64,000 nt of DNA from assembly GCF_024223415.1 (NCBI RefSeq), contig NZ_CP100500.1; one strand, given 5' to 3'. The position numbers and the translations under genes were made by a program. Under the pieces are notes generated by a model that searched no databases, was not told where the DNA came from, and saw only the letters and a list, made by a program, of their open reading frames with translations. The DNA comes from Escherichia coli. Its GTDB lineage: Bacteria; Pseudomonadota; Gammaproteobacteria; Enterobacterales; Enterobacteriaceae. Within the stretch, counting starts at the first letter, position 1. Each line of letters starts with the position of its first letter. Below, piece by piece: positions 44,816 to 63,397 of the stretch.

Positions 44816-44899
44816 CCTTTCTTTTGCAGCAGACTGGCAGGAGTGCGAGTCTGCTCGCATAATCAACACTCATTCCTTGTGGTTTTAATATTGCAACTA

Positions 44900-44919
44900 T
44901 ACTGTATATAAAAACAGTA
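44900..44919 (+). promoter_or_regulatory. LexA box (SOS operator) upstream of sbmC
   Basis: ACTGTATATAAAAACAGTA matches the CTGT-N8-ACAG consensus about 15 bp upstream of the sbmC start; coordinates approximate. Confidence 0.7.
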
Positions 44920-44933
44920 ATAATGGAGGCGTC

Positions 44934-45407
44934 ATGAACTACGAGATTAAGCAGGAAGATAAACGTACCGTTGCAGGTTTCCATCTCGTTGGCCCGTGGG
45001 AACAGACGGTAAAGAAAGGTTTTGAGCAGTTGATGATGTGGGTAGATAGCAAAAATATTGTGCCGAAGGAGTGGGTTGCTGTCTATTACGACAATCCGGA
45101 TGAAACACCCGCCGAAAAATTACGCTGCGACACCGTCGTGACGGTACCGAATAACTTTACGCTCCCCGAAAACAGTGAGGGCGTCATTCTGACAGAAATT
45201 TCAGGTGGTCAATATGCGGTGGCGGTGGCTCGTGTAGTCGGTGATGATTTTGCTAAACCCTGGTATCAGTTCTTTAATAGCCTCTTGCAGGACAGTGCTT
45301 ATGAAATGTTACCAAAGCCCTGCTTCGAGGTTTACTTGAACAATGGCGCGGAAGATGGGTACTGGGATATCGAAATGTATGTTGCGGTGCAGCCAAAACA
45401 TCACTAA
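44934..45407 (+). CDS. sbmC: DNA gyrase inhibitor SbmC (GyrI)
   Basis: 157-aa ORF recognised as SbmC. Confidence 0.9.
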
Positions 45408-45604
45408 TTCATCTCAGGGCGGTGTGTTGACGCGAAGACCACTCTTTTTTTGAAAACGAAAAGAGTAAGATGCGCCTTTCAATTTTTTCGCTCCTGCCGG
45501 GAAATTACACTGTTCCCGGTTTGTCCGTCGGATAATTCAGAGGCGCGCCTTCTGGCCGACAGATGAGTTATGAGCGCTTTTAATCTTCATTACGGAGTTT
45601 CTGC

Positions 45605-46663
45605 GTGCGTGCCGATAAGTCATTAAGCCCGTTTGAAATCCGGGTATACCGCCATTACCGCATTGTGCATGGTACTCGGGTCGCGCTGGCATTCCTGCTC
45701 ACTTTTCTCATTATCCGCCTGTTTACTATCCCGGAAAGCACCTGGCCGCTGGTCACCATGGTGGTGATTATGGGGCCAATCTCGTTCTGGGGGAACGTTG
45801 TCCCTCGCGCATTCGAACGTATTGGCGGTACGGTGTTGGGGTCGATTTTAGGTCTTATCGCTCTGCAACTGGAGTTAATCTCGTTACCGCTGATGTTAGT
45901 CTGGTGCGCGGCGGCTATGTTTCTTTGCGGTTGGCTGGCGCTGGGCAAGAAACCGTATCAAGGTTTATTGATTGGGGTGACGCTGGCAATTGTTGTTGGT
46001 TCCCCGACAGGTGAAATTAATACGGCGTTATGGCGAAGCGGCGATGTGATCCTCGGCTCTTTACTGGCAATGTTGTTTACCGGTATCTGGCCACAACGGG
46101 CGTTCATCCACTGGCGCATTCAACTGGCGAAAAGTCTGACCGAGTATAATCGGGTCTATCAATCTGCATTCTCACCGAACTTACTCGAACGCCCACGTCT
46201 GGAAAGCCATCTACAAAAACTCCTGACCGATGCCGTGAAAATGCGTGGGCTGATTGCGCCCGCCAGCAAAGAAACCCGTATTCCAAAATCGATATATGAA
46301 GGTATCCAGACCATTAACCGCAATCTGGTTTGTATGCTGGAGTTGCAAATCAATGCGTACTGGGCCACGCGCCCCAGCCATTTCGTGTTATTGAGCGCGC
46401 AAAAACTTCGTGATACCCAGCACATGATGCAGCAAATACTGCTGAGCCTTGTTCATGCGCTGTACGAAGGTAATCCGCAGCCGGTTTTTGCCAATACGGA
46501 AAAATTGAACGATGCTGTGGAAGAGCTGCGTCAGTTGCTCAATAACCACCATGACCTGAAGGTAGTGGAAACACCAATCTATGGTTATGTGTGGCTGAAC
46601 ATGGAAACGGCGCATCAGCTTGAGTTGCTATCGAATCTGATTTGCCGGGCCTTGCGCAAATAA
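45605..46663 (+). CDS. yeeA: inner membrane protein YeeA (FUSC-like)
   Basis: 352-aa ORF, N-terminal membrane domain plus soluble C-terminus; non-ATG start. Confidence 0.8.
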   Translation: MRADKSLSPFEIRVYRHYRIVHGTRVALAFLLTFLIIRLFTIPESTWPLVTMVVIMGPISFWGNVVPRAFERIGGTVLGSILGLIALQLELISLPLMLVWCAAAMFLCGWLALGKKPYQGLLIGVTLAIVVGSPTGEINTALWRSGDVILGSLLAMLFTGIWPQRAFIHWRIQLAKSLTEYNRVYQSAFSPNLLERPRLESHLQKLLTDAVKMRGLIAPASKETRIPKSIYEGIQTINRNLVCMLELQINAYWATRPSHFVLLSAQKLRDTQHMMQQILLSLVHALYEGNPQPVFANTEKLNDAVEELRQLLNNHHDLKVVETPIYGYVWLNMETAHQLELLSNLICRALRK

Positions 46664-46834
46664 TTCCTGAACTTCAGAATCATCTTGCTGCTGCTTCGAT
46701 TCAGCAAGGATAAAGGGTATGATAGTGAAAAGGGATAAAAGCATTGTCATCTGCGGCAGCTATGAGTAATGTTGGCCCTAACGAATAGCGGTTGCTTAAA
46801 CGAATCCGACTCTCACATTATCAGGGGTATAAAA

Positions 46835-47164
46835 ATGGAAACTACCAAGCCTTCATTCCAGGACGTACTGGAATTTGTTCGTCTGTTCCGTCGTAAGAAC
46901 AAACTGCAACGTGAAATTCAGGACGTTGAGAAAAAGATCCGTGACAACCAGAAGCGCGTCCTGCTGCTGGACAACCTGAGCGATTACATCAAGCCTGGGA
47001 TGAGCGTTGAAGCAATCCAGGGCATCATCGCCAGCATGAAAGGTGACTATGAAGATCGCGTTGACGATTACATCATCAAAAATGCCGAGCTCTCCAAAGA
47101 ACGCCGCGATATCTCCAAAAAGCTGAAAGCTATGGGCGAAATGAAAAACGGCGAAGCGAAGTAA
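46835..47164 (+). CDS. yeeX: UPF0265 protein YeeX
   Basis: ORF 46769..47164; start at [14 protein letters not shown] gives 109 aa. Confidence 0.85.
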
Positions 47165-47179
47165 TTCCCGTTTTATTCA

Positions 47180-47208
47180 ATGAGGGTTGCCCGGCAACCC
47201 TCATTGCT
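47180..47208 (+). terminator. hairpin after yeeX
   Basis: Inverted repeat AATGAGGGTTGCC-CG-GCAACCCTCATT immediately after the yeeX stop. Confidence 0.45.
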
Positions 47209-47264
47209 CATTGATTCTTATCTGTGTATCACCGTCATCATTCTCATCTGAGAACCAATCGAAA

Positions 47265-47450
47265 TTAACAACAGCCTTCTTCTGTATGCAGCAAGGCAAA
47301 AAGTTCTGTAACTCCATTGTTATTAACTGCACTGGTTACTAACACGTTGTGCGCTCCAGCTTCCCGTAACCAACTTTTCACCAAAGATATTTGTTCCATG
47401 CTGGCTAAATCTGCTTTGGTTACTACTCCAATGACCGGGTGATTCATGGC
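47265..47450 (-). pseudogene. truncated EutP/PduV-like GTPase C-terminal fragment (yoeF-like)
   Basis: Only the C-terminal about 60 aa (…NHPVIGVVTKADLASMEQISLVKSWLREAGAHNVLVTSAVNNNGVTELFALLHTEEGCC) is EutP-like; the upstream part of ORF 47265..47621 is antisense to the IS66 remnant. Confidence 0.5.
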
Positions 47451-47499
47451 CCGGTAGGGCGTTTTTACCTCTAATTCCTGCTTCAGCACTGAGATTCCT

Positions 47500-47680
47500 G
47501 CTTGTTGCCGGAAAAGCAGGCACCTGCCGTCTGAACGGTATCGATCCGGAAGCGTATCTGCGCCATATTCTGAGCATACTGCCGGAATGGCCCTCCAACC
47601 GTGTTGACGAACTCCTGCCATGGAACGTAGTTCTCACCAATAAATAAGCGTCAATACGGTGCTCCGTTGACGCTTACTTT
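47500..47680 (+). mobile_element. IS66-family right-end remnant (transposase C-terminus plus terminal inverted repeat)
   Basis: Plus-strand translation …GIDPEAYLRHILSILPEWPSNRVDELLPWNVVLTNK* parallels the C-terminus of the intact transposase at 61821..63356; downstream …CGCTTAC matches the IS66 IR core; coordinates approximate. Confidence 0.55.
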
Positions 47681-47879
47681 AATCCGTTTTCTGAGCTTAG
47701 ATTTTTCTGTTCCTACCCAGACCGTGGATTTGGAATTCATTTTTTGTCAGGTCAATGCTAATCGTTAAAACGGCCATAACGCACCTCCACTGGAAGGTTT
47801 ATCAGTAATATCCTACCGTTGCTTCATGGTCGGGGCGTCCATTCCATTATTATCGGTTTTCCTTTCTGTTTATAAATGA

Positions 47880-47907
47880 AAACGCCAGCTGTATTCAGGC
47901 TGGCGTC
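47880..47907 (-). terminator. putative terminator downstream of yeeW
   Basis: Minus-strand hairpin CGCCAGC-loop-GCTGGCG followed by a T-run. Confidence 0.4.
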
Positions 47908-48061
47908 AGGGGAAATGAAGCCTGTTGAGTGAGATTCACCGGTTCTGGTGCAGAAGCTGCAGATGGCGCAGGGTAAGGACATCTTCTCTTGCCTGCTTAA
48001 TACAGGACAACAGTGCTGTTTCTGTGGTTAATGGCACTATACCCTGCATCACTGCATTGTC

Positions 48062-48256
48062 TTACAGCAACTGGTGAGGGCTGGCATAAGTTGCCGGTGT
48101 TTCGGTAGAGTCACGGTCATCCACCACGCGGAGTGAATAACCTTTTTCAGCGGCCTTATTAATCAGTTCAGTGATATTAACACCATCAATGTCAACGGCA
48201 ATGTGCCCCATATCCAGCGCCTGTACGTTAACGCTGTCGGCTTCCAGTGTCATCAT
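48062..48256 (-). CDS. yeeW: prophage protein YeeW
   Basis: 64-aa ORF recognised as YeeW; start overlaps the cbtA stop. Confidence 0.7.
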   Translation of the reverse strand: MMTLEADSVNVQALDMGHIAVDIDGVNITELINKAAEKGYSLRVVDDRDSTETPATYASPHQLL

Positions 48257-48626
48257 TTCGCCTCCGGATACTTACCCAGGGTAATGTTATTTACCGTTCT
48301 GTAATTGTCGCGGGTCATCAGGCCGGTCGCCCTGCGAGCCCGGAGGATATCGATGCTGTTTATTAACTGAGAGCGGGTACAGGCGCTGAATCCCGGCTGG
48401 TCGGTAGCACCAGCGCGTATTTTTCCACGAGAAAGTTCACCGCATCACACAGTGAAATGCCTGCCTCAATATGCTGCTCAATCACACGTTCATCGGCAAA
48501 AGGTGTGTCATTCAGTGTGAGGCCATAGTGCTGGTCCAGCAGTCGGGACAGCAGTATCTGCCAGATTTCAACAGGAGACGGGCGAGAACTGGTCGCCTGC
48601 CCGGGTAATACAGGTAATGTTTTCAT
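48253..48626 (-). pseudogene. cbtA: frameshifted type IV toxin cbtA (yeeV)
   Basis: ORF 48363..48626 matches CbtA through …[10 protein letters not shown] and then diverges; the expected C-terminus ([40 protein letters not shown]) reads in another frame. Confidence 0.7.
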
Positions 48627-48714
48627 ACTGAAGATTTTCCTGATATGCAGATATAAAAATGGAAAAGTGGCGTGGTGAAAACACCAGGCCGTAGCAGAAG
48701 GCTATTCTGGAGAG

Positions 48715-49083
48715 TTAATTTTTCATTTCGGGCGTCGGATAAACAGCCAGATAAACGTAACCACAACTGCTGAGGGTATCGGCTTTGCAGGTCAGCCCTT
48801 TTGCATACAGCGTGACGGTATGCTGATGGCGGGGATTCAGTTCACCGCTGGTGAGCATGAGTTCCAGTTGTTTCATCAGCAGCGGAAAGGCCTGGTCCAG
48901 GTGGTACGCATCTGCATCGCTGAACAGGCCTCTGATACCGGCGCGGTCGGCAAGGTAATGCAACCGGTTACCCTCCTGCACCAGACGTGCCCCGAAACAG
49001 GGCGTCACGGTGCAGGGCAGCCCCCACCAGGGGCGGTCGTGATTGTCGTCGGGAAGTGTTGTCCCGGGGAGTGTGTCTGACAC
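48715..49083 (-). CDS. cbeA: antitoxin CbeA (YeeU)
   Basis: 122-aa ORF recognised as YeeU/CbeA. Confidence 0.85.
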   Translation of the reverse strand: MSDTLPGTTLPDDNHDRPWWGLPCTVTPCFGARLVQEGNRLHYLADRAGIRGLFSDADAYHLDQAFPLLMKQLELMLTSGELNPRHQHTVTLYAKGLTCKADTLSSCGYVYLAVYPTPEMKN

Positions 49084-49156
49084 GATAAAATCCTTACAGA
49101 AAATCGGCTAAGAATGGTCCGGTAGTGGCGATAATTCTGCTCATCAGAATTCCCAC

Positions 49157-49378
49157 TCAGTTCAGGGTGACGCTCATCAGCCGGACATACGGACCAAAAC
49201 TGTCCTTACGGCGTTCAGCAAACACGGCCAGCACACCGGGAATATCCTGCACTTCACGACCGGTATACGCTTCAGCACTGCCGTGCCAGCGGTATTTACC
49301 GGTACAGAACGGAAAAAGACGGGATGTCGGATGTTGTTGGTGAATACGCATGGCTTCACCACGGGTGATAATTTTCAT
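49157..49378 (-). CDS. yeeT: prophage protein YeeT (DUF987)
   Basis: 73-aa ORF recognised as YeeT. Confidence 0.8.
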   Translation of the reverse strand: MKIITRGEAMRIHQQHPTSRLFPFCTGKYRWHGSAEAYTGREVQDIPGVLAVFAERRKDSFGPYVRLMSVTLN

Positions 49379-49440
49379 AATGGGATACCTCTGAAGACAG
49401 AAGATAAAAGTGAAAACAGGTGTGATGTGGTTGTGAAGGG

Positions 49441-49917
49441 TTAAAGCAGACCATGTTCGGCAAAGGAGAAAACCTGGTTGCCACCGACTATCAGATGGTC
49501 CGGCACCCGGATATCCACCAGGCCCAGTGCCTGTACCAGACGTTCCGTGATAAGGCGGTCTGCCTTACTGGGTGTGACTTCACCGGAGGGGTGATTGTGT
49601 GCCAGCACCACGGCAGCGGCATTGTGGTACAGGGCGCGTTTAATCACTTCCCGGGGATGGACTTCCGTGCGGTTGATGGTGCCGGTAAAGAGGGTTTCAC
49701 CGGCAATCAGTTGATTCTGGTTATTCAGATACAGCACCCGGAATTCTTCACGCTCCAGTCCCGCCATGTTCAGAATCAGCCATTCCCGTGCTGCACGGGT
49801 GGAGGTGAAGGCCACGCCGGGTTCATGAAGATGGCGGTCCAGGGTTTTCAGGGCCCGTTGAATGAGGCTGCGCTCGCCGGGCGTCATCTCTCCGGGCAGA
49901 AAGGAAAGTTGTTGCAT
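49441..49917 (-). CDS. yeeS: RadC-like JAB-domain protein
   Basis: 158-aa ORF with JAMM motif (HNHPSGEVTPSKADRLIT). Confidence 0.8.
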   Translation of the reverse strand: MQQLSFLPGEMTPGERSLIQRALKTLDRHLHEPGVAFTSTRAAREWLILNMAGLEREEFRVLYLNNQNQLIAGETLFTGTINRTEVHPREVIKRALYHNAAAVVLAHNHPSGEVTPSKADRLITERLVQALGLVDIRVPDHLIVGGNQVFSFAEHGLL

Positions 49918-49932
49918 TGTGCTTCTCTCAAT

Positions 49933-50412
49933 TCAGTCGATGATGCGCATAATGGCGCTGCATTCCGGATGCTGCAGGGCGTAATCCCGCAACCGGTAAT
50001 AATGGACCGTCATGGCATAATTCTCCGTACGACAGGCATGATGACTGTACGTCATCAGACAGGCGGCAATACCGGCGGCTTCCGGGCTCATTTCTGCGCG
50101 GTTACCGTTCATGGCATTGAACAGTACCCATGTTTCGTCATCATCGTCATCCGGTTCGGGTGCCATAAATGCCCCGCCGTTGTTCAGGGTGTACAGATTC
50201 CAGATACCACCGCAGTAGTCTTCGCACAGACGGTCCATCCAGCCGAAGACACGGGGCTCCAGGGTCACCCACTGTGGAATGAGGCCAAAATGCTGCGGCC
50301 AGAAGCTGATGCGCTGTTCATCAGGGACGAGGCTGGCAACCAACTGAGGCGGATTATTCTCTGGTGTTGTAGCTGAATAAATTGTGGGGGTATTCTGAGA
50401 AACGGTTTTCAT
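49933..50412 (-). CDS. antirestriction protein (ArdB/KlcA/YfjX-like)
   Basis: 159-aa acidic ORF (DDDDDE stretch) of the type found in CP4-type islands. Confidence 0.7.
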   Translation of the reverse strand: MKTVSQNTPTIYSATTPENNPPQLVASLVPDEQRISFWPQHFGLIPQWVTLEPRVFGWMDRLCEDYCGGIWNLYTLNNGGAFMAPEPDDDDDETWVLFNAMNGNRAEMSPEAAGIAACLMTYSHHACRTENYAMTVHYYRLRDYALQHPECSAIMRIID

Positions 50413-50493
50413 GAGATAACTCCTTAAATAACAAATAAATGTGTGTTTTTCAGGAACGAAAGCTGAATGATTCCCTCACTCAGGGAAACGGCA

Positions 50494-51315
50494 TCAGCGC
50501 AGGCTCTCCAGCATCGTTTCTGCCATCACCCACAATGCGCGATTGAGCTTAATGTCGGTATCAATGCTGTGAATGGCCCGGGTATGGATACGTTTTCCTT
50601 TTGCACTGCGACCGGAAATCCCGCCTTTCAGCATATTCTCCTGGATGGTCTGATATGCGCTCCACAGGTCCTTACCGTAATCCTCCCGGCGTCGCGGCGT
50701 CAGAATGTCGGCGGTGGTGACGGGCTGATGTTCGTCACCATAACGGTAAGTCAGTGCCGCCTGTGCCAGCGCCTGGCGTGCCGGTGGCGGCAGGACCAGC
50801 GACTGCATGGCATCACGCTTCTCCTCTATCCGGTCAAACACGCCCACCACCTCGTAAGCCCCTTCAATGACTCTGTCCACCACATTTCCCCGGTGCGGAA
50901 CACGCACTTCCCCCAGAGACTGACCACAGACGCAGCCGTTCTGGCAGACGAACCTGAAGTAACCCGGCAGCATCTGGTAGCTGGAGGTACCGTCATGAGA
51001 GTTGAGCAGAATAATTTCAGGGACATGTTCTCCGTTTATCTCTCCGGCCCGCCGCAGACGCAGCATGTGTTTGGTATATTCCCGGCGGCTCTGGTCGCGC
51101 ACACGGGTCTGGCAGGCGAAGAACGGCTGAAAGCCTTCCCGCTGCAGATTTTCCAGGACGGTAATGGTGGGAATGTACGCATACCGTTCACTGCGGGAGG
51201 TGTGCCGGTCTTCCCCAAAAATACTGGGTACATGGCGTATCAGTTCTTCATGTGTCAGCGGACGGTCACGGCGTATCTGGTTTGCAGCATAACCAAAACG
51301 ACTGGCTAATCGCAT
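50494..51315 (-). CDS. DUF932-family prophage protein (YfjQ/YafZ-like)
   Basis: 273-aa ORF of the family that follows the GTPase gene in CP4-type islands. Confidence 0.75.
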   Translation of the reverse strand: MRLASRFGYAANQIRRDRPLTHEELIRHVPSIFGEDRHTSRSERYAYIPTITVLENLQREGFQPFFACQTRVRDQSRREYTKHMLRLRRAGEINGEHVPEIILLNSHDGTSSYQMLPGYFRFVCQNGCVCGQSLGEVRVPHRGNVVDRVIEGAYEVVGVFDRIEEKRDAMQSLVLPPPARQALAQAALTYRYGDEHQPVTTADILTPRRREDYGKDLWSAYQTIQENMLKGGISGRSAKGKRIHTRAIHSIDTDIKLNRALWVMAETMLESLR

Positions 51316-51363
51316 ACTTTGCTCCTTATCGGTGGTTAAGATTTACTGGTGCAATAAATGAAA

Positions 51364-51392
51364 AAAGCCGCGTCTCCCGGAGAAGACGCGGC
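51364..51392 (-). terminator. putative rho-independent terminator after the secreted-protein genes
   Basis: Minus-strand hairpin GCCGCGTCT-loop-AGACGCGGC followed by TTTTTT. Confidence 0.45.
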
Positions 51393-51535
51393 CTGACGGG
51401 TGAAATGAATAAGGTTTATTGTCTGAGAGGCCTTTCACTGGCGAGCCACGCATTAAGCGGCTTTCCGGTAACAATGGCTGGGGCTGTATTTACCTTTGAT
51501 ATTAATAATGTGCAGAGAAACGCATGGTTTACTCC

Positions 51536-51946
51536 TTAGATTTTAAGTTTGTCCTGGGCTACAACGACAGGTTTTCCGGATGTGTCGATGACTCCTACCG
51601 TCGGTACGCCATTTTTGATTTCGAAGAACGGTTTGTTGCTACCTGAGCACAGTTGATTGTCCCCGTATTCAATCATTTGTGCTTTCCCGGTTTTCAGGTT
51701 AACTACCGAGACAGTGTAGTCGTAGCACCAGGCACCACCACGTTCAAGCACGAAAACATAGCTGTTATCTTTATAGTTGAACTGATTCTTTGTCTGGCAA
51801 TTCATACCGTCAATTTCGGTACAGGAAAACGCTTCTGTAGTATTAACGTATTTGATGTTATTTGGCAGTTTTACTTGTTTCGCAGTAGCGAAGACAGAGA
51901 ACAGAATAGTTACAGCAACGAGTAAAGTTTTGATAAAAGTTTTCAT
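51536..51946 (-). CDS. hypothetical secreted protein
   Basis: 136-aa ORF with a typical Sec signal peptide (MKTFIKTLLVAVTILFSVFATA), four Cys, low GC. Confidence 0.5.
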   Translation of the reverse strand: MKTFIKTLLVAVTILFSVFATAKQVKLPNNIKYVNTTEAFSCTEIDGMNCQTKNQFNYKDNSYVFVLERGGAWCYDYTVSVVNLKTGKAQMIEYGDNQLCSGSNKPFFEIKNGVPTVGVIDTSGKPVVVAQDKLKI

Positions 51947-51961
51947 GATAGACTCCTTAAA

Positions 51962-52450
51962 TTAGTTAAACGCAGCTACGTAGTTTTTCACCAGATACGC
52001 GAATTCATGCACGCCAATTTCACCGAACCAAACCAGGTAGGCCGGGTCATCTAAACCAAAGTAACGGTAGCCAACAACTTCATGGGTTTTTGGGTTATAG
52101 AGTGTTACGATAAAGTCCCAGCCGCAGGTATTGGCTTTGCAACCGTCGCCCTGGAGCCAGACTGTATCGTTAATGTTTACTGGCGTGATACCTCCACCAG
52201 GGCCATCCATATAGCCGCCTTTACCGAACATGCCGCTCAGTCCGACCGGTTTTAATGCTTTGTCGATAGCGGCTTTGTAGGTAGCGTCACCTTCGTACAA
52301 CTCGTACGTTGATGGACACGCTCCAGGTTGTTCAGCCCAGGCTTCCGGGTTACAACTAAGTGCTTGTTTTACGGTAGCCGCTTCTGCGTTAAAGTTAAAG
52401 CCCGTGAACAGAACCGCCAGAAATAACATAAGGGTATGTAAACGTTTCAT
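51962..52450 (-). CDS. hypothetical secreted Cys-rich protein
   Basis: ORF 51962..52753; probable start at MKRLHTLMLFLAVLFTGFNFNAEA (signal peptide) gives about 163 aa; six Cys in the mature part. Confidence 0.5.
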   Translation of the reverse strand: MKRLHTLMLFLAVLFTGFNFNAEAATVKQALSCNPEAWAEQPGACPSTYELYEGDATYKAAIDKALKPVGLSGMFGKGGYMDGPGGGITPVNINDTVWLQGDGCKANTCGWDFIVTLYNPKTHEVVGYRYFGLDDPAYLVWFGEIGVHEFAYLVKNYVAAFN

Positions 52451-52780
52451 TGTAAATATTCTTCCGTTGTAAATGGCGCTGGAAAATTTCTCATCAGTGA
52501 AACCTTCCGGAAGTTTCCCCCCCTTGTATGATGTATATCGCCAGTATTTTATTTCATCCCGGCTGTAATTTTTATATTCCCCGGCACGTGCAATAACGCT
52601 GACCAGAGATATAAGGCTCATTAATAACTTTACAGGTAATTTCATAATTAAATTTCCAGTGAGTGAATTGACAGGTGAGGGGTAAAACTTTCTCTCAGGT
52701 AATATATATCTGAAAATATTTTCAATAACACCAGACAGGAAAAACACCACCACAGGCGGTGGCGTTTCTTTGGGGCGTCT

Positions 52781-53851
52781 TTATTTAATCCGGGCCATCG
52801 CGTTTCTCAGTGCCAAATCTGCCTCTTCCGTTATATCCAGGCTTTTCTGCAATACCGCCTCTGACCGGGTCAGTGCCTGACGTGCTGCCAAGGGGTTCCG
52901 GATATGCTCCATCGTCAGCATCGTGTCTTCATAGCCCTGCTGACGCCAGATGTCGGTATGTGCCGATGTAAAACTGAGCAGACCGCCACTTTTGCCTTCT
53001 TCCCCTGTGTGTTTCAGCCTTTTCCGGGGACGGATTTCAAGGATTGTGGTGTCCGGAAAAGCCCGGCGATCCCATAAAGAACCGTCACTCAGATGCGTCA
53101 CAATCACCATATTGCATCCGGCATCGACCAGAGGCGTTACAGGGGTATTTCCCTGCATATTTCGCCATCCTCCCATCCCACCATCACCGAACATTGTCCC
53201 CTGAACCTCACGGGGATGGAACAACAGGGGCAGTGCGGCTGACGCAAGCAGAGCCTCTTTCTGCTGTCCGCGGGGCAGACTCTGGATATGCTGAAAAACG
53301 GCGTTTTTCGTGGTTCCGGCACCCAGTTCAGCACGAATGCAGTCAATAATATCCTGCATGCCCCCTTCTGTGGGGTACAGCGACACATACAGCGGTAGCC
53401 CGTCTGCCAGAGCATCAGTATCAAGATAATGATCCATCAGCGCTGTCAGAGGCTCATCTGACAACAGCGGCTGAGCCATCGGATTGTCGAAGCCGTTGAT
53501 TATCGATATATGGCGAAGAAGTATCGTAAGCAGTGCTCCTGCACGTCCGGGGATCTGGCAGAGGTTCATTGCCTGGAACAATTTTTTCAGCAATGAAAAG
53601 TAAACCGATCGGTTTACCGACAGCACCTGATTATTCCCCAGATGATCCCAGAGCGCCTCCAGGCGTACGGCAGCTTCTGACAGATCGGGAGAGGCCGCGA
53701 TAATGGCACCATTGAATGCGCCAATGCTGGCCCCTGAAACCATGCTGATCTGTGTACCACACTCTGCCAGTGCCTTAACCACTCCCGCCTGATAAGCGCC
53801 CACCGCCCCGCCACCGGACAGCACCAGCCCCGTTTTCATTTCTGTACTCAT
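52781..53851 (-). CDS. patatin-like phospholipase
   Basis: 356-aa ORF with glycine-rich oxyanion loop (SGGGAVGAYQAG), GxSxG nucleophile motif (GASIG) and catalytic DGG (FGDGGMGG); no signal peptide; start overlaps the upstream gene's stop. Confidence 0.8.
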   Translation of the reverse strand: MSTEMKTGLVLSGGGAVGAYQAGVVKALAECGTQISMVSGASIGAFNGAIIAASPDLSEAAVRLEALWDHLGNNQVLSVNRSVYFSLLKKLFQAMNLCQIPGRAGALLTILLRHISIINGFDNPMAQPLLSDEPLTALMDHYLDTDALADGLPLYVSLYPTEGGMQDIIDCIRAELGAGTTKNAVFQHIQSLPRGQQKEALLASAALPLLFHPREVQGTMFGDGGMGGWRNMQGNTPVTPLVDAGCNMVIVTHLSDGSLWDRRAFPDTTILEIRPRKRLKHTGEEGKSGGLLSFTSAHTDIWRQQGYEDTMLTMEHIRNPLAARQALTRSEAVLQKSLDITEEADLALRNAMARIK

Positions 53852-54753
53852 GCAGCCCCCTTCTGAAATATTTCATCGACCATACTTTCAGAGAGGCGTT
53901 CTGCAGAGCAGAGGCGAGGCATGCGAACCGGTAAGTGTTCTGCAGCCTGCGTGGTTGACCAGATCACCGGATGCTGCTCTTCACTGCACCAGTCTCCCAG
54001 CCAGTTAATCGCGTCATGCCACTCGTTATCTGCCTGCTCCCGGCCCTGACCACCAAGCCAGTCCAGAGTGTTCAGACGCACGGTTGCACTACCGCCACTC
54101 TCCTGTGCCATCTGCGTTAATGCTTTATGTCTGAGAATATCCAGTAGCTGGTTAACCTGGCCTGTTTCGCTCTGACGTATCACATCACCAAACGCGCCCC
54201 AGCGAAGCTCTTCAAGTGCCACATAACAACGTCCGGCAGGGGAAAATGACGCATATCGCCCGGCGCTCCACCATGAGAATATCTGCTCAAGATGTAACTG
54301 CGCCCGCTGAACCTGGTCAACACGGTGGAGTTTTTCTTCAAGATGATTCAGTTTATGGTGAACCTGATCGGCCAGGGTGAGTAACTGCTCCCGCGTATCT
54401 GCGGAATAATGCGCCAGCCTGGCTGTATCACTGACCAGTGAACTGACCCTGTCGTTTACCCGGGTAATCGCGTAGTTTGTGGTGGCAAGTGACGTTGTCA
54501 TCTCCGTCAGCCAGCGCAGGGACGCCTCAACGCCCTGTGCAAGCGACGCATTGATGGCATTCTGCCGTGCAGCGCCTTCGCCGGTCAGCCCCTCTTTTAA
54601 ACGCCGGAAGAACGTGCGCTCTCCGGCCGTGCGGATATGCTCCTGTGCAACATCGATTCCGTTTGCGAAATCAACCACAAATTTTTCAGGAAGACAGGTG
54701 AGTACCTGACATACCCGGTTATCAGCAATTTGTTGAATAAATGGTGAAGTCAC
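53848..54753 (-). CDS. hypothetical protein (partner of the dynamin-like GTPase)
   Basis: 301-aa ORF, predicted alpha-helical, GTG start overlapping the stop of the upstream gene (GTGA) with a GGAGA RBS about 10 nt upstream. Confidence 0.55.
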   Translation of the reverse strand: MTSPFIQQIADNRVCQVLTCLPEKFVVDFANGIDVAQEHIRTAGERTFFRRLKEGLTGEGAARQNAINASLAQGVEASLRWLTEMTTSLATTNYAITRVNDRVSSLVSDTARLAHYSADTREQLLTLADQVHHKLNHLEEKLHRVDQVQRAQLHLEQIFSWWSAGRYASFSPAGRCYVALEELRWGAFGDVIRQSETGQVNQLLDILRHKALTQMAQESGGSATVRLNTLDWLGGQGREQADNEWHDAINWLGDWCSEEQHPVIWSTTQAAEHLPVRMPRLCSAERLSESMVDEIFQKGAA

Positions 54754-57146
54754 AGCATTGTCTCCAGCTCTTCCCTCAGCGCCTTACTGTCAGTAATGAG
54801 CTCAGGAACCCTTTCATTTAATGCCTGAAGTCGCCCGGTAAGTCGTTCCTGCGCCTGCTGATCGCGTTTATGATCTTCAGAGCTCTGAATCAGCGTGTTA
54901 CGCAGTTGTTCAACTTTCTCCCTGAATGCGCAGAAAAAGGCATCGATTTCCTGGCGGACGGGCTGGTTAATATCCTGCTCAATGGATGCCTGCAGCTCCC
55001 CGAAATATGCCCGGGTCAGTGACATAACTTCCTCTCTGACCTTGTTGATATTGATCACGCTGCGACTCACATCCTCGTCATAGTTTTCCCAGCCCAGGTC
55101 ACTGGTGCCAAACCATCGACAAACGGTTCCCCATACGCCACTCTGCCGACGGCGACGGGTGACGGTCTCCGTTCTTTCCTCCATAAGCGCACTCAGATTT
55201 ATTTTTACCGCGAGCCGGGTCTGTAACTGGCTGACTGCCGGAAAACTGATTTTTACGGTAAAGCCCTCATCCTCCAGGCGGGCATTGATGCGACCGGCAA
55301 TGTTTTCTGTGGCGTACAGGGCCGTGCCACGAAAACCTGTTTCAATCCCGCTGACGATTTTCTCCAGCTCAGGCCGGAACTGTGCTTCAGCCTCACGGTG
55401 CAGGCTGGTCACGGTCGATTCGATTTGCGTCATCAGTTCAAGGGCTTCCCTGCGATCACTGAATTTTATTTCGGGGCTGTCCGGGGCAAAATCTCGTTTC
55501 CTGTAATCCTCCCGGCCCTGGTTGTTGATACCGGACCATTGAGAAATTTTCCCCCATAATCCGGACTGAGACCTTCGTTGTTCTGCGTCTTCTTCCTCCA
55601 GCATTTGCTGTTCTTTGCGTTTACCGCTTCTGAAATAGTCATTCAGCTCCTCTTCCAGTGAGGTGCAGACCCCCGTCAGTAATTCCCGGGTTTTAGTATC
55701 GATCTCCTCCATGGCCATTCTGACATCAGTGGTCATCTGCTCCTGACAGTCCGCGATTTCCCGGATATCCGCAAGCAGGCTGGTGATATGCGACTGCAGT
55801 GACTGAATGCTTTGCTGTAGCCCCTGATGGCGTAACAACAGGTATTCACTGATATTTTCTGCATTCTGCATCAGTTTTGCGGCGGCAGAGTCAACCGCCA
55901 GTGCCGCAGCTCTGGAATGTGAGCTCTGTATGACTTCCGTTATCAGTTGATCGATAAGTGAGCCTTCCCACAGGTCTGTCGCCCCTTCAGTTGCCAGTTC
56001 ACTGTCTTTACAGACGTATTCTTTTTTCATGCAACCGAAGGCACCTCTGATAAAATCATCGACCCAGGCTTCATCAACAGGAAGGGTTCCGTTTTTCCGT
56101 AACTCATGAAGCGCACGGTTAGCCAGGTATGCCTGGCGTGAGGATCCGGGATAAACGCGGGAGGCGGGCAGCACATCGCTGTTCAGCATTGCCGGAACTT
56201 TCTGGCGTACGGCATCTGCCCCATCGCCATTGCGGTCTTTCTCATCAAATTTATTGACCAGTACAAACAGGCGGCCGGCTGATACGTCAGCAATGGCATT
56301 AAGCTCTTTACGGACGTCTTCATCCGCTTTTGAGTTCATCTGGGTGTAATCCATCACAGCCAGAACCGCAGAGGCTTTCTGCAGTTGATCCCGCATCATC
56401 ACTTCCATCTGCGGTTGTCCGGCCTCATTAGGGCCGGGGGTATCCAGCAGTGTGAGTGTTCCCTGGCATGCATCCATCCCCACCAGATGGCTGAATTCCA
56501 CGTCGATCACCGGCAGTTTCTGCACTTCTGCGTATTCATCAAAAGGAAATTCAGTCCCCATTGCCGCAGCAAGACGAACCAGATCGTTTAACGATGCCAG
56601 TCCGGTAAAGATTTCCTCCTCCCCGTGGTATTCATTTTTGAGCCAGCCATCATCCGTCAGAATATCCAGCAGTTCGCGGGTATCCCCGGTTTGCTGCAGG
56701 GTCTGTGCGACCTGCTGTCCTGCCGGGGTGGCGAGTTTTTCCTGCAGTGTGATTAATAAATTGCGGACAGGCTGAATATGTTCCAGATGGAGAACCGGCT
56801 CAGTTTTTCCGGGAACGTGGCGGATGAGCGTCGGTACAGAGGTCATGGGGCGGTTACGGTTAGGCAGAATTTCCTGCCCCACAATGGCGTTGATGGTGGT
56901 TGATTTGCCTGCTTTCATCGTGCCGACAACAGCCAGCACCATCTCCCTGCGGGCGGTTTTGATTTGTTCGCCCTCCAGCTCCTCAATTCTTTTCAGTGCT
57001 TTCTGTTTATCAAAAAGCAGTCTGTTTTCGTTCTTACTGTCAGATAACACATCTGGCTCCTCAACCATTTGCCGGAGCAGATTAATGTTCAGTTGCAAAA
57101 GTCGGTCGGCTTCATCACAAAGCAGGGCGATGTTCTTTTCGTGCAT
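54750..57146 (-). CDS. dynamin-like large GTPase
   Basis: 798-aa ORF with G1 P-loop (GTMKAGKST), switch-I Thr, G3 (LLDTPG) and G4 (LVNKFD) in the N-terminal third, then long helical/coiled-coil regions. Confidence 0.8.
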   Translation of the reverse strand: MHEKNIALLCDEADRLLQLNINLLRQMVEEPDVLSDSKNENRLLFDKQKALKRIEELEGEQIKTARREMVLAVVGTMKAGKSTTINAIVGQEILPNRNRPMTSVPTLIRHVPGKTEPVLHLEHIQPVRNLLITLQEKLATPAGQQVAQTLQQTGDTRELLDILTDDGWLKNEYHGEEEIFTGLASLNDLVRLAAAMGTEFPFDEYAEVQKLPVIDVEFSHLVGMDACQGTLTLLDTPGPNEAGQPQMEVMMRDQLQKASAVLAVMDYTQMNSKADEDVRKELNAIADVSAGRLFVLVNKFDEKDRNGDGADAVRQKVPAMLNSDVLPASRVYPGSSRQAYLANRALHELRKNGTLPVDEAWVDDFIRGAFGCMKKEYVCKDSELATEGATDLWEGSLIDQLITEVIQSSHSRAAALAVDSAAAKLMQNAENISEYLLLRHQGLQQSIQSLQSHITSLLADIREIADCQEQMTTDVRMAMEEIDTKTRELLTGVCTSLEEELNDYFRSGKRKEQQMLEEEDAEQRRSQSGLWGKISQWSGINNQGREDYRKRDFAPDSPEIKFSDRREALELMTQIESTVTSLHREAEAQFRPELEKIVSGIETGFRGTALYATENIAGRINARLEDEGFTVKISFPAVSQLQTRLAVKINLSALMEERTETVTRRRRQSGVWGTVCRWFGTSDLGWENYDEDVSRSVININKVREEVMSLTRAYFGELQASIEQDINQPVRQEIDAFFCAFREKVEQLRNTLIQSSEDHKRDQQAQERLTGRLQALNERVPELITDSKALREELETML

Positions 57147-57363
57147 TATTTAACCTTCCTAAGACGCATTTTCATGACAACCACGGAGGAGGTCATTTAC
57201 TACAAACGATCGTTTATAACGATCGATATGATAGTAACGATCGATACATTCTATTAACTTGAGAAACACAACGCAAGGGGACAACCCGGGTATGGCTGCG
57301 TTTGCATAGTGTTTTCATGGAGTTAAAAATCTGTAACAACAGCCTGGTACATCACCACCGGGT

Positions 57364-58280
57364 TCAGAAGAAAATCCAGTTCCATACCGCGCGGGCAACA
57401 GAGACCACCGAGTCACGGACGGCGCGCAGAACCGTGCGTGCAACAGAGGCAATGCAGACGCTCTCCGCCGTGTCAAATATCCGGTCCACCGCACCGGTAA
57501 ACTGTTCACGGGCCTGAGACCGGACAGACTCCGTGCGCAGCTCGTCCTGCAGGCGGGTCATCAGGGGACTGGCGGCATGGTCGGGAAGTGCTGTCATGAG
57601 CGCACTGACCAGCGTATCCAGTTCCCAGCCGGTGCGGGCCGATACGGCAACAACCCGATGTACGGGCCGGAACAGACGGAATACCGCCTCCGTTTTTTCG
57701 CGAATGTTCTGTGCCTGTGCGGGAGAAGGCTGAATACCGGCCATATCCCATTCATGGCAGGGCTCCGTTTTATCGGCCTGCATCACCACAAACAGTACCC
57801 GCTGATGTCCCCGGTGCAGGATGTGTCGCCAGAAATACTCATCCACAGACAGGGCACGGTCATCGGCTTTAATCAGCCACAGTACCAGGTCCAGTTCGAG
57901 CAGAATGTCACGGTACAGGGCTTCATACTCTGCATCCCTGTCCCGGCTCTCGCCCACCCCACCCCGGGCAGGTCAGTGATAACCATGCTGTGACCATGGC
58001 CATTCAGACGGAAGCGCTGCACTTCCCGGGGGCCGGCGTGAACATCACTGACCGGGGTGACCTCCCCCTGAAACAGCGCATTACAGAGTGAGGATTTACC
58101 GGCCCCGCTTTTACCCATAATGCCAGGCACGGGTTCGTGACTGGTGAGTTTGCGCAGATGTTCCAGGATGTGACGGGAAAGTGAGTAAGGCAGGGAGGAG
58201 AGCGGTTTTTCAATTGCCTCAATGGCATCAGACGGATTCATACATGTATTCCCGGTGAAAAAAGACAAAACCCCGCGCAC
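57364..58280 (-). pseudogene. YeeP/YfjP/YkfA-family small GTPase, frameshifted
   Basis: N-terminal part with P-loop (GKSGAGKSS) and DLPGVG in ORF 57873..58280; C-terminal part in overlapping ORF 57364..57957 in another frame; break coincides with a tandem ACCCC-ACCCC repeat. Confidence 0.7.
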
Positions 58281-58324
58281 CGGAAAGGTGGCGGGGGATT
58301 CACGGAAATAATATCTGTCTGAAA

Positions 58325-59488
58325 TTATCTGGAATCGATTTGGCTGTTCTGCCTGGTTGCCACCAAATCATGGTACGCCTGCTCAATCATTTCATTCAGC
58401 AGTTTTTTTGGGAGGACACCACGACTTCGGGCAATACTTTCAAGCTGTTTGTGGATTTTTCCGGACAGTTTCAGAGGGACGGAACCATCAGCACGTTCAT
58501 CACGCCTTTTTTGTTGCTCCCGGGCACTTTTCAGCTCATCAAGAAGAATCGCTTTATGCTGAATCCTGGGGGCCTGGAAGGAGACCTGCGTAAACTTCGC
58601 TCTGTTCCGTCTGGGATTACTTTCCAGTAAAAACTGTACCTGTTGCTCATTCCAGCCCTCCCAGTTATCAAACGTGGCGCAGGCAAACCAGTATTTCTGC
58701 TCCGGGGTAAGGGGATTCAGCGGGGTTCCCACACACCGGACCTGCATGGCGTTCCATAACCAGTCACACTGTTCACTGTCCCTGCTGTCCACCCACGAAA
58801 AGGGGGAGGGGTAATCATTGTTTATGCTGGCCCATTCAGAGAATACTGAGTTGATAATCGTCCTCGTAGCCTCTGGTCCGGATTTCAGCAGGTAACTGGA
58901 GCAGAACCATATAATTTCACGGTAGATTTTATCCGGATGCACGGTGCGCATCGGCTTTTCTCTGGGACCGGCAATCTTCGGTTGCGATGGAAACCCCGTG
59001 GCAAACCGCAGATGTTCCGGGGGCATTCCTGAACGTTTTTCAGGAATGGGTGTGAGTCCTGCGTTTCTGGTCTTTTCCGCTTGTCCGGTATTGCCTCCGG
59101 CCGGAGTGTTGTCGGGAGTATCTTCCGGAGGCGAGGTGTTTTCATTAGTTGGGGGAACAACAGCAGAACTGTCCATCTCCGGAATGGGTTGAGGGGCATA
59201 ATCACTGTGGTAGCCAGGGGAAAGCGTTAAGTCCCGAAGGGTGACATCAGGTTCCGGGCAGTGAGTGCCACCGGGAGTGAACGGGAGTTGTTGCTTTTGG
59301 GAGAAAAATGTATTGTGAATGCGGGTATACAGCTGGAACAGAAAAAAATAAGATGCCCGTGGTTCTTTTTTTAACCACTGTGTATATTCCTCTATGGCAC
59401 CGAGCTGTTGTTTGTGCCGTTTTACAGCATCGATATACGGACAGCTGGTGCAGATATCATCCAGTTCCTTTCCCACAATACACCTCAC
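58325..59488 (-). CDS. hypothetical island protein with Pro-rich linker
   Basis: 387-aa ORF: Cys-containing N-terminal region, a low-complexity Pro/Thr-rich segment, then a conserved-looking C-terminal domain; function and true start unknown. Confidence 0.45.
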   Translation of the reverse strand: MRCIVGKELDDICTSCPYIDAVKRHKQQLGAIEEYTQWLKKEPRASYFFLFQLYTRIHNTFFSQKQQLPFTPGGTHCPEPDVTLRDLTLSPGYHSDYAPQPIPEMDSSAVVPPTNENTSPPEDTPDNTPAGGNTGQAEKTRNAGLTPIPEKRSGMPPEHLRFATGFPSQPKIAGPREKPMRTVHPDKIYREIIWFCSSYLLKSGPEATRTIINSVFSEWASINNDYPSPFSWVDSRDSEQCDWLWNAMQVRCVGTPLNPLTPEQKYWFACATFDNWEGWNEQQVQFLLESNPRRNRAKFTQVSFQAPRIQHKAILLDELKSAREQQKRRDERADGSVPLKLSGKIHKQLESIARSRGVLPKKLLNEMIEQAYHDLVATRQNSQIDSR

Positions 59489-60952
59489 CTGCTTTTCTCA
59501 CATTTGCAGATTTTAAAAAAGCAAACAAAAACCTCCGTACATGATGTACAGAACAATCTACCAGGTAGTGGCGTCAGAAAACCCCCGGGCCGCCTGCACT
59601 TTCCAGAATGCGCCGGTTATGAAAAACCGGAAATTCAGTCTCTGTTGTAAGATGTACCCTCTGATACTACGTTTTCTCTGTGTATTTAACTCACTGTATT
59701 TATTGTCTTTTTAAGCTTGACTGATATTCTCCGGTCATAGTGTGCCGGATATACATCCCGTAAACTTCTCATTTTTATATAAAAATACCTGCACTCTCTT
59801 CAGCGCATCTGTCTCCTTTAAGTAAAAAATGTTTTCACGTATTGCTGTAAATTCATTTTAAATCAGTATATTACCTTGATATTGCTGTCTCCTGGTTTGA
59901 TGCGTAATCGTTCTGCCTTTCTGGATGATTCTGGTGCTTCCGGGTGCATTCTCCTCTGCACATGCAACAGTTCGTCATCGCCACGCTCCCAAAAAGCATA
60001 TAAAAACGAATCGAATTTGATATTTTTTTCAATCGTTTTTCATAGGAATTTCGTAGGGTATTCTCCGCTATAACCTCCATATTTGCTGCCTTTTTCTCCA
60101 TAAATCGTATGCAATATAGCCTGTCTGTCAAGACCTCTTCTCTGCTGTTGAGGAGACGATCTCATTTTTGGTCTTTTCCGGGAGAGAGGCTGTCAGATGA
60201 GCGAGCCGGATATACTGTCAGAGGTACACCCCGTAGCAGACCTGTGCTCCCATTTCCGCGATCCGGAACCAACAACACCCTACGGTTAATACCATTTGAA
60301 GCGTCAGGTACTGCAGGAAGTTCCCCCCTGCGCGGACATCGGTTCCTGCCGACATCTCACAATACGGCCAGACTGTCATGCAGTAACACCCGCATGCGGT
60401 CTGCGGTTTTAAGCGCACTCTCCCGTTTTCAGTGCACCGATAATGCGTCATAGTAAGTCTGGGGGAAGTTACGGAATGCCTGTTAAGTGGTGCCGTGGGT
60501 GGAGACAGCTTACTTTTCTACAGCAACTGCAGTCATTCAGGATGATCAGGAGATATTCTGTCAATGTCACGATCCTGCCATTTTCGTACCCGCTAAGATA
60601 CTTCCGTTACTGATGCTGTCCGCTTTTCACCATTTCATCCTCACTGACAGGCGTTGCGTTTTGGGTCATCACCACAGCTTTACGTTTCTCTTTTAACCGG
60701 TAACGCTCTCCTTTGATATTCAGCGTGGTTGAGTGATGCAGCAGTCAATCCAGGAGCGCTGTTGTCCGGCAACCACCATATCAACTTCTTCCCGGGTGTG
60801 GCGGAGAGGTGGTATCCTGGCTGAGTTTCGAAGCGAACCGTTCTTTTTGACGGGCGCATTTTACGTCCGGGCTGAATGTAGTAACGCGGCATGGAACGTC
60901 GGCCCGTATACCATTGCCTTAATCTCCGCAAAGATAACCTCGTCATTCCGGA

Positions 60953-60960
60953 CATTCTCT
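60953..60960. repeat. 8-bp target-site duplication (CATTCTCT), left copy
   Basis: Same octamer directly abuts both ends of the IS66-family element; coordinates approximate. Confidence 0.6.
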
Positions 60961-61043
60961 GTAAGCGTCGTCTGAGTACCGTCTGGTCCCGAATCCAGGA
61001 TCCTGTAACTTAAGCACCCACTTATTTTGCAGGTGGACACCTC

Positions 61044-61427
61044 ATGCGCGCTAAAGAAAGACTTCCCCGGAAACACTATTCCCCTGAATTCAAAATGGAA
61101 CTGGTCAGGCTGGCTCTTGAAGAAGAAGGCAGTATTGCCGCACTGGCCCGGAAACATGACGTCAATGATAACCTGCTCTTTAAATGGATAAGGCTCTGGC
61201 AGCGTGAAGGGCGGGTCTGTCGGCCCCGAAAAAACTCATCGTCGCTTCCTGCCCTGATACCCGTGCAGCTTCAGGCGGGCTCTTCTCTCCCAACCTTCGA
61301 ACTACCATCCTGCTCTCCTCCCGCTACCTGCCACATAAAATGTCGGGGAGGAGAAATAACACTGACTCATCCCTCTGCTGAACTCATGAGCACTGTCCTG
61401 CGCGAACTGATGCGGGGGCCTGTATGA
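61044..61427 (+). CDS. IS66-family accessory protein (orfA, HTH)
   Basis: 127-aa ORF with N-terminal transposase-type HTH (RKHYSPEFKMELVRLALEEEGSIAALARKHDVNDNLLFKWIR). Confidence 0.8.
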   Translation: MRAKERLPRKHYSPEFKMELVRLALEEEGSIAALARKHDVNDNLLFKWIRLWQREGRVCRPRKNSSSLPALIPVQLQAGSSLPTFELPSCSPPATCHIKCRGGEITLTHPSAELMSTVLRELMRGPV

Positions 61428-61771
61428 TAAATCTTCCCGCAGGCACAAAAATCTGGCTGGTTGCCGGTATCACCGATATGCGCAACGGCTTCAATGGCCT
61501 CGCCGCAAAGGTGCAGACCGCGCTGAAAGATGACCCGATGTCCGGCCACGTCTTCATCTTCCGGGGACGCAGCGGCAGTCAGGTAAAACTGCTCTGGTCC
61601 ACCGGCGATGGTCTGTGCCTGCTGACAAAGCGACTAGAACGTGGTCGCTTCGCCTGGCCCTCAGCCCGCGATGGCAAAGTGTTCCTGACGCTGGCGCAAC
61701 TGGCGATGCTGATGGAAGGTATCGACTGGCGACAGCCAAAGCGGTTACTGACATCCCTGACCATGTTGTAG
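61424..61771 (+). CDS. IS66-family TnpB (orfB)
   Basis: 115-aa ORF with the conserved TnpB signature (LPAGTKIWLVAGITDMRNGFNGL); 4-nt overlap with orfA. Confidence 0.85.
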   Translation: MINLPAGTKIWLVAGITDMRNGFNGLAAKVQTALKDDPMSGHVFIFRGRSGSQVKLLWSTGDGLCLLTKRLERGRFAWPSARDGKVFLTLAQLAMLMEGIDWRQPKRLLTSLTML

Positions 61772-61820
61772 CGCTCTTTATCCTGGTTGTCGCAGAATAA
61801 GCCTGGTAAAATACAGGCTT

Positions 61821-63356: not shown

Positions 63357-63397
63357 CCAGCTTCACTTCGTCAATACGGTTCTCACTGCACGCTTAC

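Follow-up and report, generated by a model that had tools for sequence, protein, structure and literature searches.

In this study we describe an island of the Escherichia coli chromosome, located at 47.2-59.5 kb of a 64,000-nucleotide (nt) stretch (assembly GCF_024223415.1, contig NZ_CP100500.1; termed the window), and the genes that it carries between a yeeP-type GTPase gene and a DUF932 gene. The island is a CP4-44 remnant, which adjoins tmaR/yeeX and lies in the orientation opposite to that in K-12. Its cargo comprises an operon coding for a dynamin-like GTPase, a YjcZ-family protein and a patatin-like phospholipase (the triad), preceded by a sequence resembling the Dam/OxyR switch of agn43, as well as two genes for small secreted proteins. 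The arrangement itself is known and ordinary, being annotated in thousands of E. coli genomes, with the flu form of K-12 as the other common allele; the part of interest is the phase-variable control predicted for a mobile gene triad. The gene order was read from the list of open reading frames (ORFs) and from the RefSeq annotation of a 99.9% identical chromosome, and comprises the following features (lengths of proteins in amino acids, aa):

46835-47164, plus strand: tmaR (yeeX), chromosomal gene flanking the island (RefSeq annotation; 99% identical to K-12)
47265-47621, minus strand: yoeF-like EutP/PduV GTPase fragment, island end (RefSeq annotation)
about 47510-48028, minus strand: transposase and DUF957 fragments beyond the yoeF-like fragment
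48062-48256, minus strand: yeeW (DUF5983; RefSeq annotation)
48253-48626, minus strand: cbtA toxin pseudogene, with a 1-nt deletion near 48407
48715-49083, minus strand: cbeA antitoxin gene, intact (ORF and RefSeq annotation)
49157-49378, minus strand: yeeT (DUF987; RefSeq annotation)
49441-49917, minus strand: yeeS (RadC/JAB); homology to K-12 stops at 49893, within its 5' end
49933-50412, minus strand: antirestriction protein gene, not in K-12 CP4-44
50494-51315, minus strand: DUF932 gene, not in K-12 CP4-44
51365-51394, minus strand: strong terminator-like hairpin (13 pairs and a T run) in the backbone, upstream of DUF932
51416-51468, minus strand: relic of the 3' end of a DUF905 gene (comparisons with KTa008 and the O157 tRNA-Ser island; tblastn)
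51536-51946, minus strand: 136-aa secreted protein with four invariant Cys, from an Escherichia-restricted orphan family
51962-52450, minus strand: 162-aa secreted protein (RefSeq: 227 aa, to 52645) with an Ivy fold according to its predicted structure; C-x4-C loop CKANTC
52745-52761, minus strand: terminator-like hairpin, 20 nt past the patatin stop
52781-53851, minus strand: patatin-like phospholipase with GGGAVG, GASIG and DGG motifs; its start overlaps the upstream stop (ATGA)
53848-54753, minus strand: YjcZ/RdcB-family protein (Pfam PF13990); its start overlaps the dynamin stop (GTGA)
54750-57146, minus strand: dynamin-like GTPase, RdcA/CrfC paralogue with G1-G4 motifs
57208-57276, minus strand: putative agn43-type switch with promoter hexamers, three GATC sites and an OxyR-consensus 37-mer
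57364-58241, minus strand: yeeP-type GTPase pseudogene, with a 5-nt GGGGT duplication at 57961-57965
58325-59488, minus strand: 387-aa ORF without family match

A first-pass annotation of the sequence had recognized the minus-strand order of CP4-type backbone genes beside yeeX, and the ORFs and the RefSeq annotation agree with this order; the island is CP4-44 at its K-12 locus. Some details need correction. The ORF starting at 47265 is yoeF-like and does not code for YeeW, and the listed backbone genes are indeed present, but cbtA and the GTPase gene are pseudogenes. DUF932 and the antirestriction gene likewise occur in the window, yet are absent from K-12 CP4-44. The 387-aa ORF is absent from the KTa008 and O157 tRNA-Ser islands, where homology ends at about 58330, and therefore is not conserved backbone; its central part is rich in Pro and Thr, and searches of Pfam, NCBIfam, PADLOC and PHROGs gave no match to it.

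No tRNA was found in the window, and the annotation of the identical strain shows no integrase as far as 12 kb past it. A full prophage or an integrase-bearing island was rejected on these grounds. A P4-type integrase and a tRNA attachment site are thus missing here; K-12 CP4-44 also shows no integrase, so their lack is compatible with CP4-44 membership.

Mosaic structure of the GTPase-DUF932 interval

In blastn comparisons with K-12 (NC_000913), window positions 44001-49893, including dacD-sbmC-yeeA-tmaR, align at 99.07% identity up to the 5' end of yeeS, and positions 57361-57916 (the yeeP pseudogene) at 96.2%, with no alignment between 49893 and 57361. The space between these alignment ends amounts to 5087 bp in K-12 (isrC-flu-yeeR) versus 7467 bp in the window. 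No homologue of flu, yeeR or IrmA was found anywhere in the window, either by blastn or by tblastn with Ag43, full-length YeeR and IrmA, and the sole match to DUF905 (tblastn) is a relic of 52-69 nt from the 3' end of that gene. The replacement of flu and yeeR by the dynamin/patatin operon and two secreted Cys-containing proteins, as read from the sequence in the first pass, is thus borne out by both kinds of search, and alignment to K-12 and other genomes revealed a syntenic backbone.

K-12 CP4-44 (yeeP-isrC-flu-yeeR-yeeS-yeeT-cbeA-cbtA-yeeW-yoeF) and the island in the window occupy the same tmaR/yeeX locus, are 99% identical at the nucleotide level between yeeS and yoeF and 96% in yeeP, and neither has an integrase left. 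In place of isrC-flu-yeeR, however, the window harbours the antirestriction gene, DUF932, the DUF905 relic, the two secreted-protein genes, the genes for patatin, the YjcZ-like protein and dynamin, and a short switch; moreover, cbtA and the GTPase gene are frameshifted in the window. K-12 makes a poor reference, being a deletion form itself: it lacks DUF932 and the antirestriction gene, and its yeeR of 510 aa is what remains of an 838-aa gene that a deletion joined to yeeS.

A full Ag43 island is found at the same locus in KTa008, in the order GTPase, agn43, 838-aa YeeR, IrmA, DUF905, DUF932, antirestriction and RadC. Homology to KTa008 covers window positions 44066-51468 (98.3% identity) and 57361-58339 (95.3%), and its limits define a variable segment from 51469 to 57360. 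The left breakpoint (51468/51469) lies inside the DUF905 relic and is the same against KTa008 and against the O157 tRNA-Ser island; the right breakpoint (57360/57361) follows the GTPase stop codon by 3 nt.

In O157:H7, the island at tRNA-Ser next to ghrA (SpLE1 / O-island 43/48) has the same backbone order, and its triad is 94.5% identical (window positions 52696-57150), with homology of the triad ending at 52696. This island differs in that cah lies between the switch and the triad, both secreted-protein genes are absent, and identity in the backbone is no more than 84-91%. A module separate from the triad is formed by these two genes (51469-52695), and it is this module that the O157 tRNA-Ser island lacks. 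Overall, five states of the slot were verified, which are built from few modules:

Empty: K-12 CP4-57, with yfjP and yfjQ 91 bp apart
Ag43/Cah alone: YD786
Ag43 with 838-aa YeeR, IrmA and DUF905: KTa008
Cah with the dynamin triad: O157:H7 tRNA-Ser island (GTPase-cah-dynamin-YjcZ-patatin-DUF932)
Triad with two secreted proteins: the present window

The distribution of these forms was assessed among 5426 complete E. coli genomes. At least 80% of a 13-kb query (47000-60000) is covered in 1753 of them, and the query is 99.9% identical to many chromosomes; hence the arrangement is common and no oddity. Some part of the cargo is matched in 2715 genomes. The GTPase gene, switch and dynamin gene adjoin one another in 1979 genomes, and 635 have the cah-dynamin junction; genomes with flu at the tmaR locus number at most 1528, a figure that takes in other loci too. 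The cargo resides at the tmaR locus in UTI89 and, with a truncated dynamin gene, in O157:H7; the same five-gene cargo is also found between GTPase and DUF932 genes in a tellurite-resistance island elsewhere in the chromosome. In Escherichia albertii, the triad occupies the same GTPase-to-DUF932 slot, but the small-gene segment differs, matching weakly over just 115 nt.

From the yeeP-type GTPase gene to DUF932, the island is therefore a mosaic of few modules with sharp boundaries. The best explanation, which together with the history and the switch mechanism proposed below we regard as probable, is that the region represents an integrase-less CP4-44 remnant, fixed beside tmaR/yeeX and present here in one of two major allelic forms. 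The broader proposal of a simple cargo-exchange hotspot, where the interval takes up many unrelated and mutually exclusive cargos and the slot itself is irrelevant, holds insofar as the content of the segment differs between islands (K-12, KTa008, YD786, O157 and the window) and the left breakpoint at 51468 recurs in two comparisons. It fails on the number and exclusivity of cargos: in a spread sample of 60 records only these few modules were seen, the repertoire comprises five states, Cah and the triad co-occur in 635 genomes, and the same type of switch always precedes the first cargo gene. Nor do an Ag43-family gene and the dynamin operon strictly exclude each other, since the O157:H7 tRNA-Ser island carries both in tandem. 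A plain hotspot thus appears unlikely.

Alternatively, no exchange took place, and the forms arose by differential deletion from a large ancestral island that contained GTPase, switch, Ag43, YeeR, IrmA and DUF905 together with the triad. The existence of a tandem cah-triad form, the DUF905 relics of unequal length and the fact that K-12 is demonstrably a deletion derivative are in keeping with such a scenario. Yet, no locus was seen that combines YeeR/IrmA/intact DUF905 with the triad, other genera carry the triad as an independently mobile unit, and the switch in the window has diverged by about 30% from the cah switch, which argues against a recent deletion product of that allele. We consider this course of events improbable.

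Exchange of modules, as favoured here, might have proceeded in several steps. Starting from an Ag43-type island that contained DUF905, the triad would have replaced YeeR-IrmA and the 5' part of DUF905 by illegitimate recombination, yielding the O157 form. Subsequent loss of the autotransporter gene would have fused the switch to the triad, and the arrival of the two secreted-protein genes, along with further erosion of DUF905, would have produced the form in the window. Finally, the segment may spread between paralogous islands via homologous recombination in the conserved flanks. It counts against this succession that the order of events was read from relics and not from a phylogeny.

A putative Dam/OxyR switch upstream of the dynamin gene

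A stretch of 217 bp separates the GTPase stop codon from the dynamin ATG and is homologous to the agn43/cah switch region. The sequence 5' of the ATG contains TAATAGAAT, followed by three GATC sites within 35 bp, and in a four-way alignment with the upstream regions of K-12 flu, KTa008 agn43 and O157 cah, TAATAGAAT and all three GATC sites are common to the four. The predicted promoter consists of a -35 hexamer TTGCGT (57276-57271) and a -10 hexamer TAGAAT (57253-57248) with a 17-nt spacer; hexamers and spacing are identical in cah. The GATC sites are located at 57242-57239, 57224-57221 and 57211-57208, at offsets of +11/+29/+42 from the -10 hexamer, versus +11/+30/+43 in agn43/cah. Over a core of about 95 nt, identity to agn43 and cah reaches 69-71%, compared to 72% between agn43 and cah themselves.

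Overlapping the GATC sites, a 37-mer (57245-57209) is predicted to bind OxyR. Scored over 20 positions against the OxyR tetramer consensus ATAGnTnnnAnCTAT-N7-ATAGnTnnnAnCTAT, it matches at 16 positions, while K-12 agn43 reaches 14 and cah 13; the site is the best among about 128,000 positions in the window. The second-best match (15/20), at 14597-14633, forms a near-palindrome within AT-rich sequence.

Transcription of agn43 is repressed when OxyR occupies the unmethylated GATC sites; once Dam has methylated them, OxyR is excluded, and heritable OFF and ON states result (PMC2909390, PMC4872104). By analogy, we infer that an agn43-type switch controls the dynamin operon: the operon would stay OFF as long as OxyR occupies the three GATC sites in their unmethylated state, methylation of these sites by Dam would exclude OxyR and lock the operon ON, and a heritable subpopulation would then express the dynamin/phospholipase module. 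The TAATAGAAT -10 box, the near-identical GATC spacing, the overlapping OxyR consensus and the position just after a yeeP-type gene are shared with the agn43/cah switches. In contrast to these, the distance from GATC-I to GATC-II is 1 nt shorter in the window, and the putative switch would drive a cytoplasmic GTPase/phospholipase operon rather than an autotransporter. In addition, the leader measures about 65 nt here and 190-220 nt there, and the isrC-type hairpin is missing: agn43/cah leaders carry a strong terminator-like hairpin (the IsrC end in K-12) just before the start codon, and the dynamin leader has none.

Several observations weigh against this assignment. The -35 hexamer agrees with the sigma-70 consensus at only three of six positions, and the hexamer pair is not listed by a generic promoter scan. 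The loose pattern of three GATC sites is no rarer than chance (one found, 0.81 expected), and an OxyR score of at least 16 was reached in 1 of 20 shuffled windows. Among five variants no substitution falls in a GATC site, but only about one was expected, and this conservation is not significant. Furthermore, the literature searched contains no report on expression, methylation or OxyR binding for this locus. The switch-like sequence could accordingly be an inert leftover of a deleted Ag43-family gene, with the operon being constitutive or responding to another signal, and the missing agn43 leader and its hairpin, along with the weak -35 hexamer and the lack of a significant excess of GATC conservation, would fit such a relic. 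Nevertheless, lineages with a cargo divergence of 4-6%, as well as E. albertii, retain the -10 hexamer and all three GATC sites at unaltered spacing (the layout is preserved in UTI89, UTME-2 and E. albertii), the site scores higher against the OxyR consensus than that of agn43, and no other convincing promoter was found between the switch and the dynamin ATG. On balance, a non-functional relic seems doubtful to us.

No terminator-like site was detected between cah and the dynamin gene in the O157 tandem form. Taken together with the 1979 and 635 junctions, this means that a switch of this kind lies upstream of the triad in most of its E. coli copies. The Ag43 family is known to undergo Dam/OxyR phase variation in E. 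coli. Should the dynamin operon be governed by this switch too in about 36% of complete genomes, including uropathogenic and commensal lineages, the triad would constitute a second class of phase-variable traits, which would be missed in work on K-12 and might confound transcriptomic and phenotypic comparisons.

The dynamin-YjcZ-patatin triad

The genes for dynamin, YjcZ and patatin overlap by 4 nt each, and a terminator-like hairpin closes the operon after the patatin gene; the three thus form a translationally coupled operon. The dynamin-like GTPase aligns end-to-end with K-12 RdcA/CrfC (33% identity, E 9e-121), and its G1-G4 motifs, as read from the translation, are intact. On the CrfC equivalog profile NF007368 it scores 556 bits, the cut-off being 1146, and is therefore a paralogue rather than an orthologue. 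The YjcZ-family protein matches Pfam PF13990 (E 4.7e-70) and is 30% identical to K-12 RdcB (E 2e-37). In the patatin-like protein the Gly-rich motif (GGGAVG), the serine motif (GASIG) and the aspartate motif (DGG) are preserved, and the cluster to which it is 94% identical carries PF01734.

Six other genera (Pectobacterium, Vibrio, Pseudomonas, Yersinia, Plesiomonas and Enterobacter) encode patatin homologues with 48-64% identity, and there too the gene order is Dynamin_N-YjcZ-Patatin. These contexts were obtained from the patatin homologues, since only E. albertii was retrieved when species-representative genomes were scanned for peptide patterns of the dynamin protein. The neighbours in these genera include integrases, WYL/BrxR regulators, BrxL/PglZ and Mrr/PDDEXK nucleases, and no GATC cluster is present upstream of the triad in the six loci. 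Based on gene order, neighbours and missing GATC clusters, we infer that the triad is a self-contained mobile unit, that the switch belongs to the E. coli slot and not to the cargo, and that a role in defence is plausible. The triad of Pectobacterium belongs to the same kind of island but takes a different slot, where it terminates a CP4-like backbone (GTPase ... RadC-CbeA-CbtA-DUF4942-dynamin-YjcZ-patatin).

The conservation of the triad on mobile islands beside BREX components, WYL regulators and nucleases renders it a candidate defence system. As its most likely role we tentatively propose a membrane-acting anti-phage or abortive-infection module with patatin as the effector; the basis of this possibility is gene neighbourhoods. 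Dynamin or patatin parts are also known from the defence systems Eleos (LeoA/LeoBC) and CBASS (CapV-type phospholipase effectors), and the triad resembles these by its dynamin-family GTPase and its patatin, which in the other genera are borne on mobile islands near BREX, WYL regulators and nucleases. Yet, the profile matches to these systems are only marginal, and no cyclase or other CBASS part occurs here. PADLOC v2 yielded LeoBC at 8.6e-5 and a phospholipase effector at 8.4e-5, with no stretch passing alone, and the CBASS lipase profile scored 18.6 bits versus a cut-off of 200. Searches of the cargo proteins with PADLOC, NCBIfam and PHROGs gave no system-level assignment, and no paper on the triad or on phase variation of a dynamin operon was found in the literature searched. 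That the neighbourhoods stem from six loci only further tempers the proposal.

The main functional rival to a defence role is a function in cyclic di-GMP (c-di-GMP) signaling. In K-12, RdcA and RdcB activate the diguanylate cyclase DgcE, a role known for this K-12 pair only (PMC6510439). Similarly, the island GTPase and its YjcZ partner might activate a diguanylate cyclase such as DgcE, and the slot would then accommodate alternative cargos for biofilm formation or aggregation, either Ag43 or a regulator of the Rdc type. The island genes resemble rdcA/rdcB (yjdA/yjcZ; crfC) in that adjacent genes for a dynamin-like GTPase and a YjcZ-family protein (Pfam YjcZ) are arranged in the same order, with similarity over the full length, and in the island copy the stop and start codons of the pair overlap. 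The island operon differs by the low identity of its products (33% and 30%), its third, coupled patatin gene and its location on mobile islands. Since the coupling to patatin is invariable and has no counterpart at K-12 rdcAB, the GTPase scores far under the CrfC/RdcA equivalog cut-off (556 versus 1146 bits), and the triad resides on mobile islands in genera without an established DgcE partner, a c-di-GMP module appears unlikely.

Going beyond a defence role of the triad, the region downstream of yeeP-type GTPase genes might serve as a portable epigenetic platform, whose agn43-type Dam/OxyR switch would make expression of any gene placed behind it heritably ON or OFF. In about a third of E. 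coli strains, this platform would drive the captured triad as an undescribed, membrane-acting anti-phage system, which would be controlled by WYL regulators in other genera, and defence would be confined to a subpopulation. We regard such a generalization as rather speculative.

A resequencing study of strain ATCC 25922 lists 122, 75 and 10 “mutations” in crfC, rssA and yeeP, respectively (PMC7696260). These are the names that an annotator would give to the island genes for dynamin, patatin and the GTPase, and our guess is that the clusters are read-mapping artefacts between paralogous islands.

Secreted proteins, degraded genes and flanking sequences

Both small proteins possess a signal peptide and four invariant Cys, and both families are restricted to Escherichia, save for one partial Proteus mirabilis record in the 136-aa family. 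The RefSeq start of the larger protein gives 227 aa, yet most homologues comprise about 160 aa. The structure of the 162-aa core (internal start at 52450) was modelled with a predicted local distance difference test (pLDDT) score of 82.8, and the top eight Foldseek matches are all Ivy chains (probability 1.00, target template modelling score 0.60-0.73), with no other significant match. Accordingly, the protein is predicted to adopt the fold of Ivy, the inhibitor of vertebrate lysozyme. The predicted fold and a C-x4-C loop at the equivalent place in the model are shared with the Ivy family; on the other hand, identity is about 20%, the 227-aa protein has no Pfam match even at E <= 10, the family is Escherichia-restricted, and the loop reads CKANTC or CKANAC. 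The inhibitory loop of Ivy is CKPHDC, the His of which is missing in CKANTC. The 136-aa protein has no Pfam match and, with a weak model (pLDDT 66), no fold match; its sole profile match is phrog_8968 of unknown function.

The toxin gene cbtA is inactivated beside an intact cbeA. The same frameshift is annotated in O157:H7 at the tmaR locus, and cbtA is intact in KTa008 and UTI89. In the GTPase gene, the GGGGT duplication falls in a G-rich run at the DLPGVG motif, and the copies in UTI89 and K-12 are truncated at their 5' ends instead. The gene directly upstream of the switch seems to decay repeatedly.

Beyond the island, positions 59500-63400 contain degenerate gene fragments (RefSeq: an AAA ATPase remnant) and, after these, an IS66-family element that is complete:

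61044-61427: tnpA of the IS66-family element
61424-61771: tnpB of the IS66-family element
61821-63356: tnpC of the IS66-family element

At the opposite end, a stretch of 29 nt located between tmaR and the yoeF-like fragment (47178-47206) matches K-12 in inverted orientation too; this short inverted repeat probably is a bidirectional terminator.

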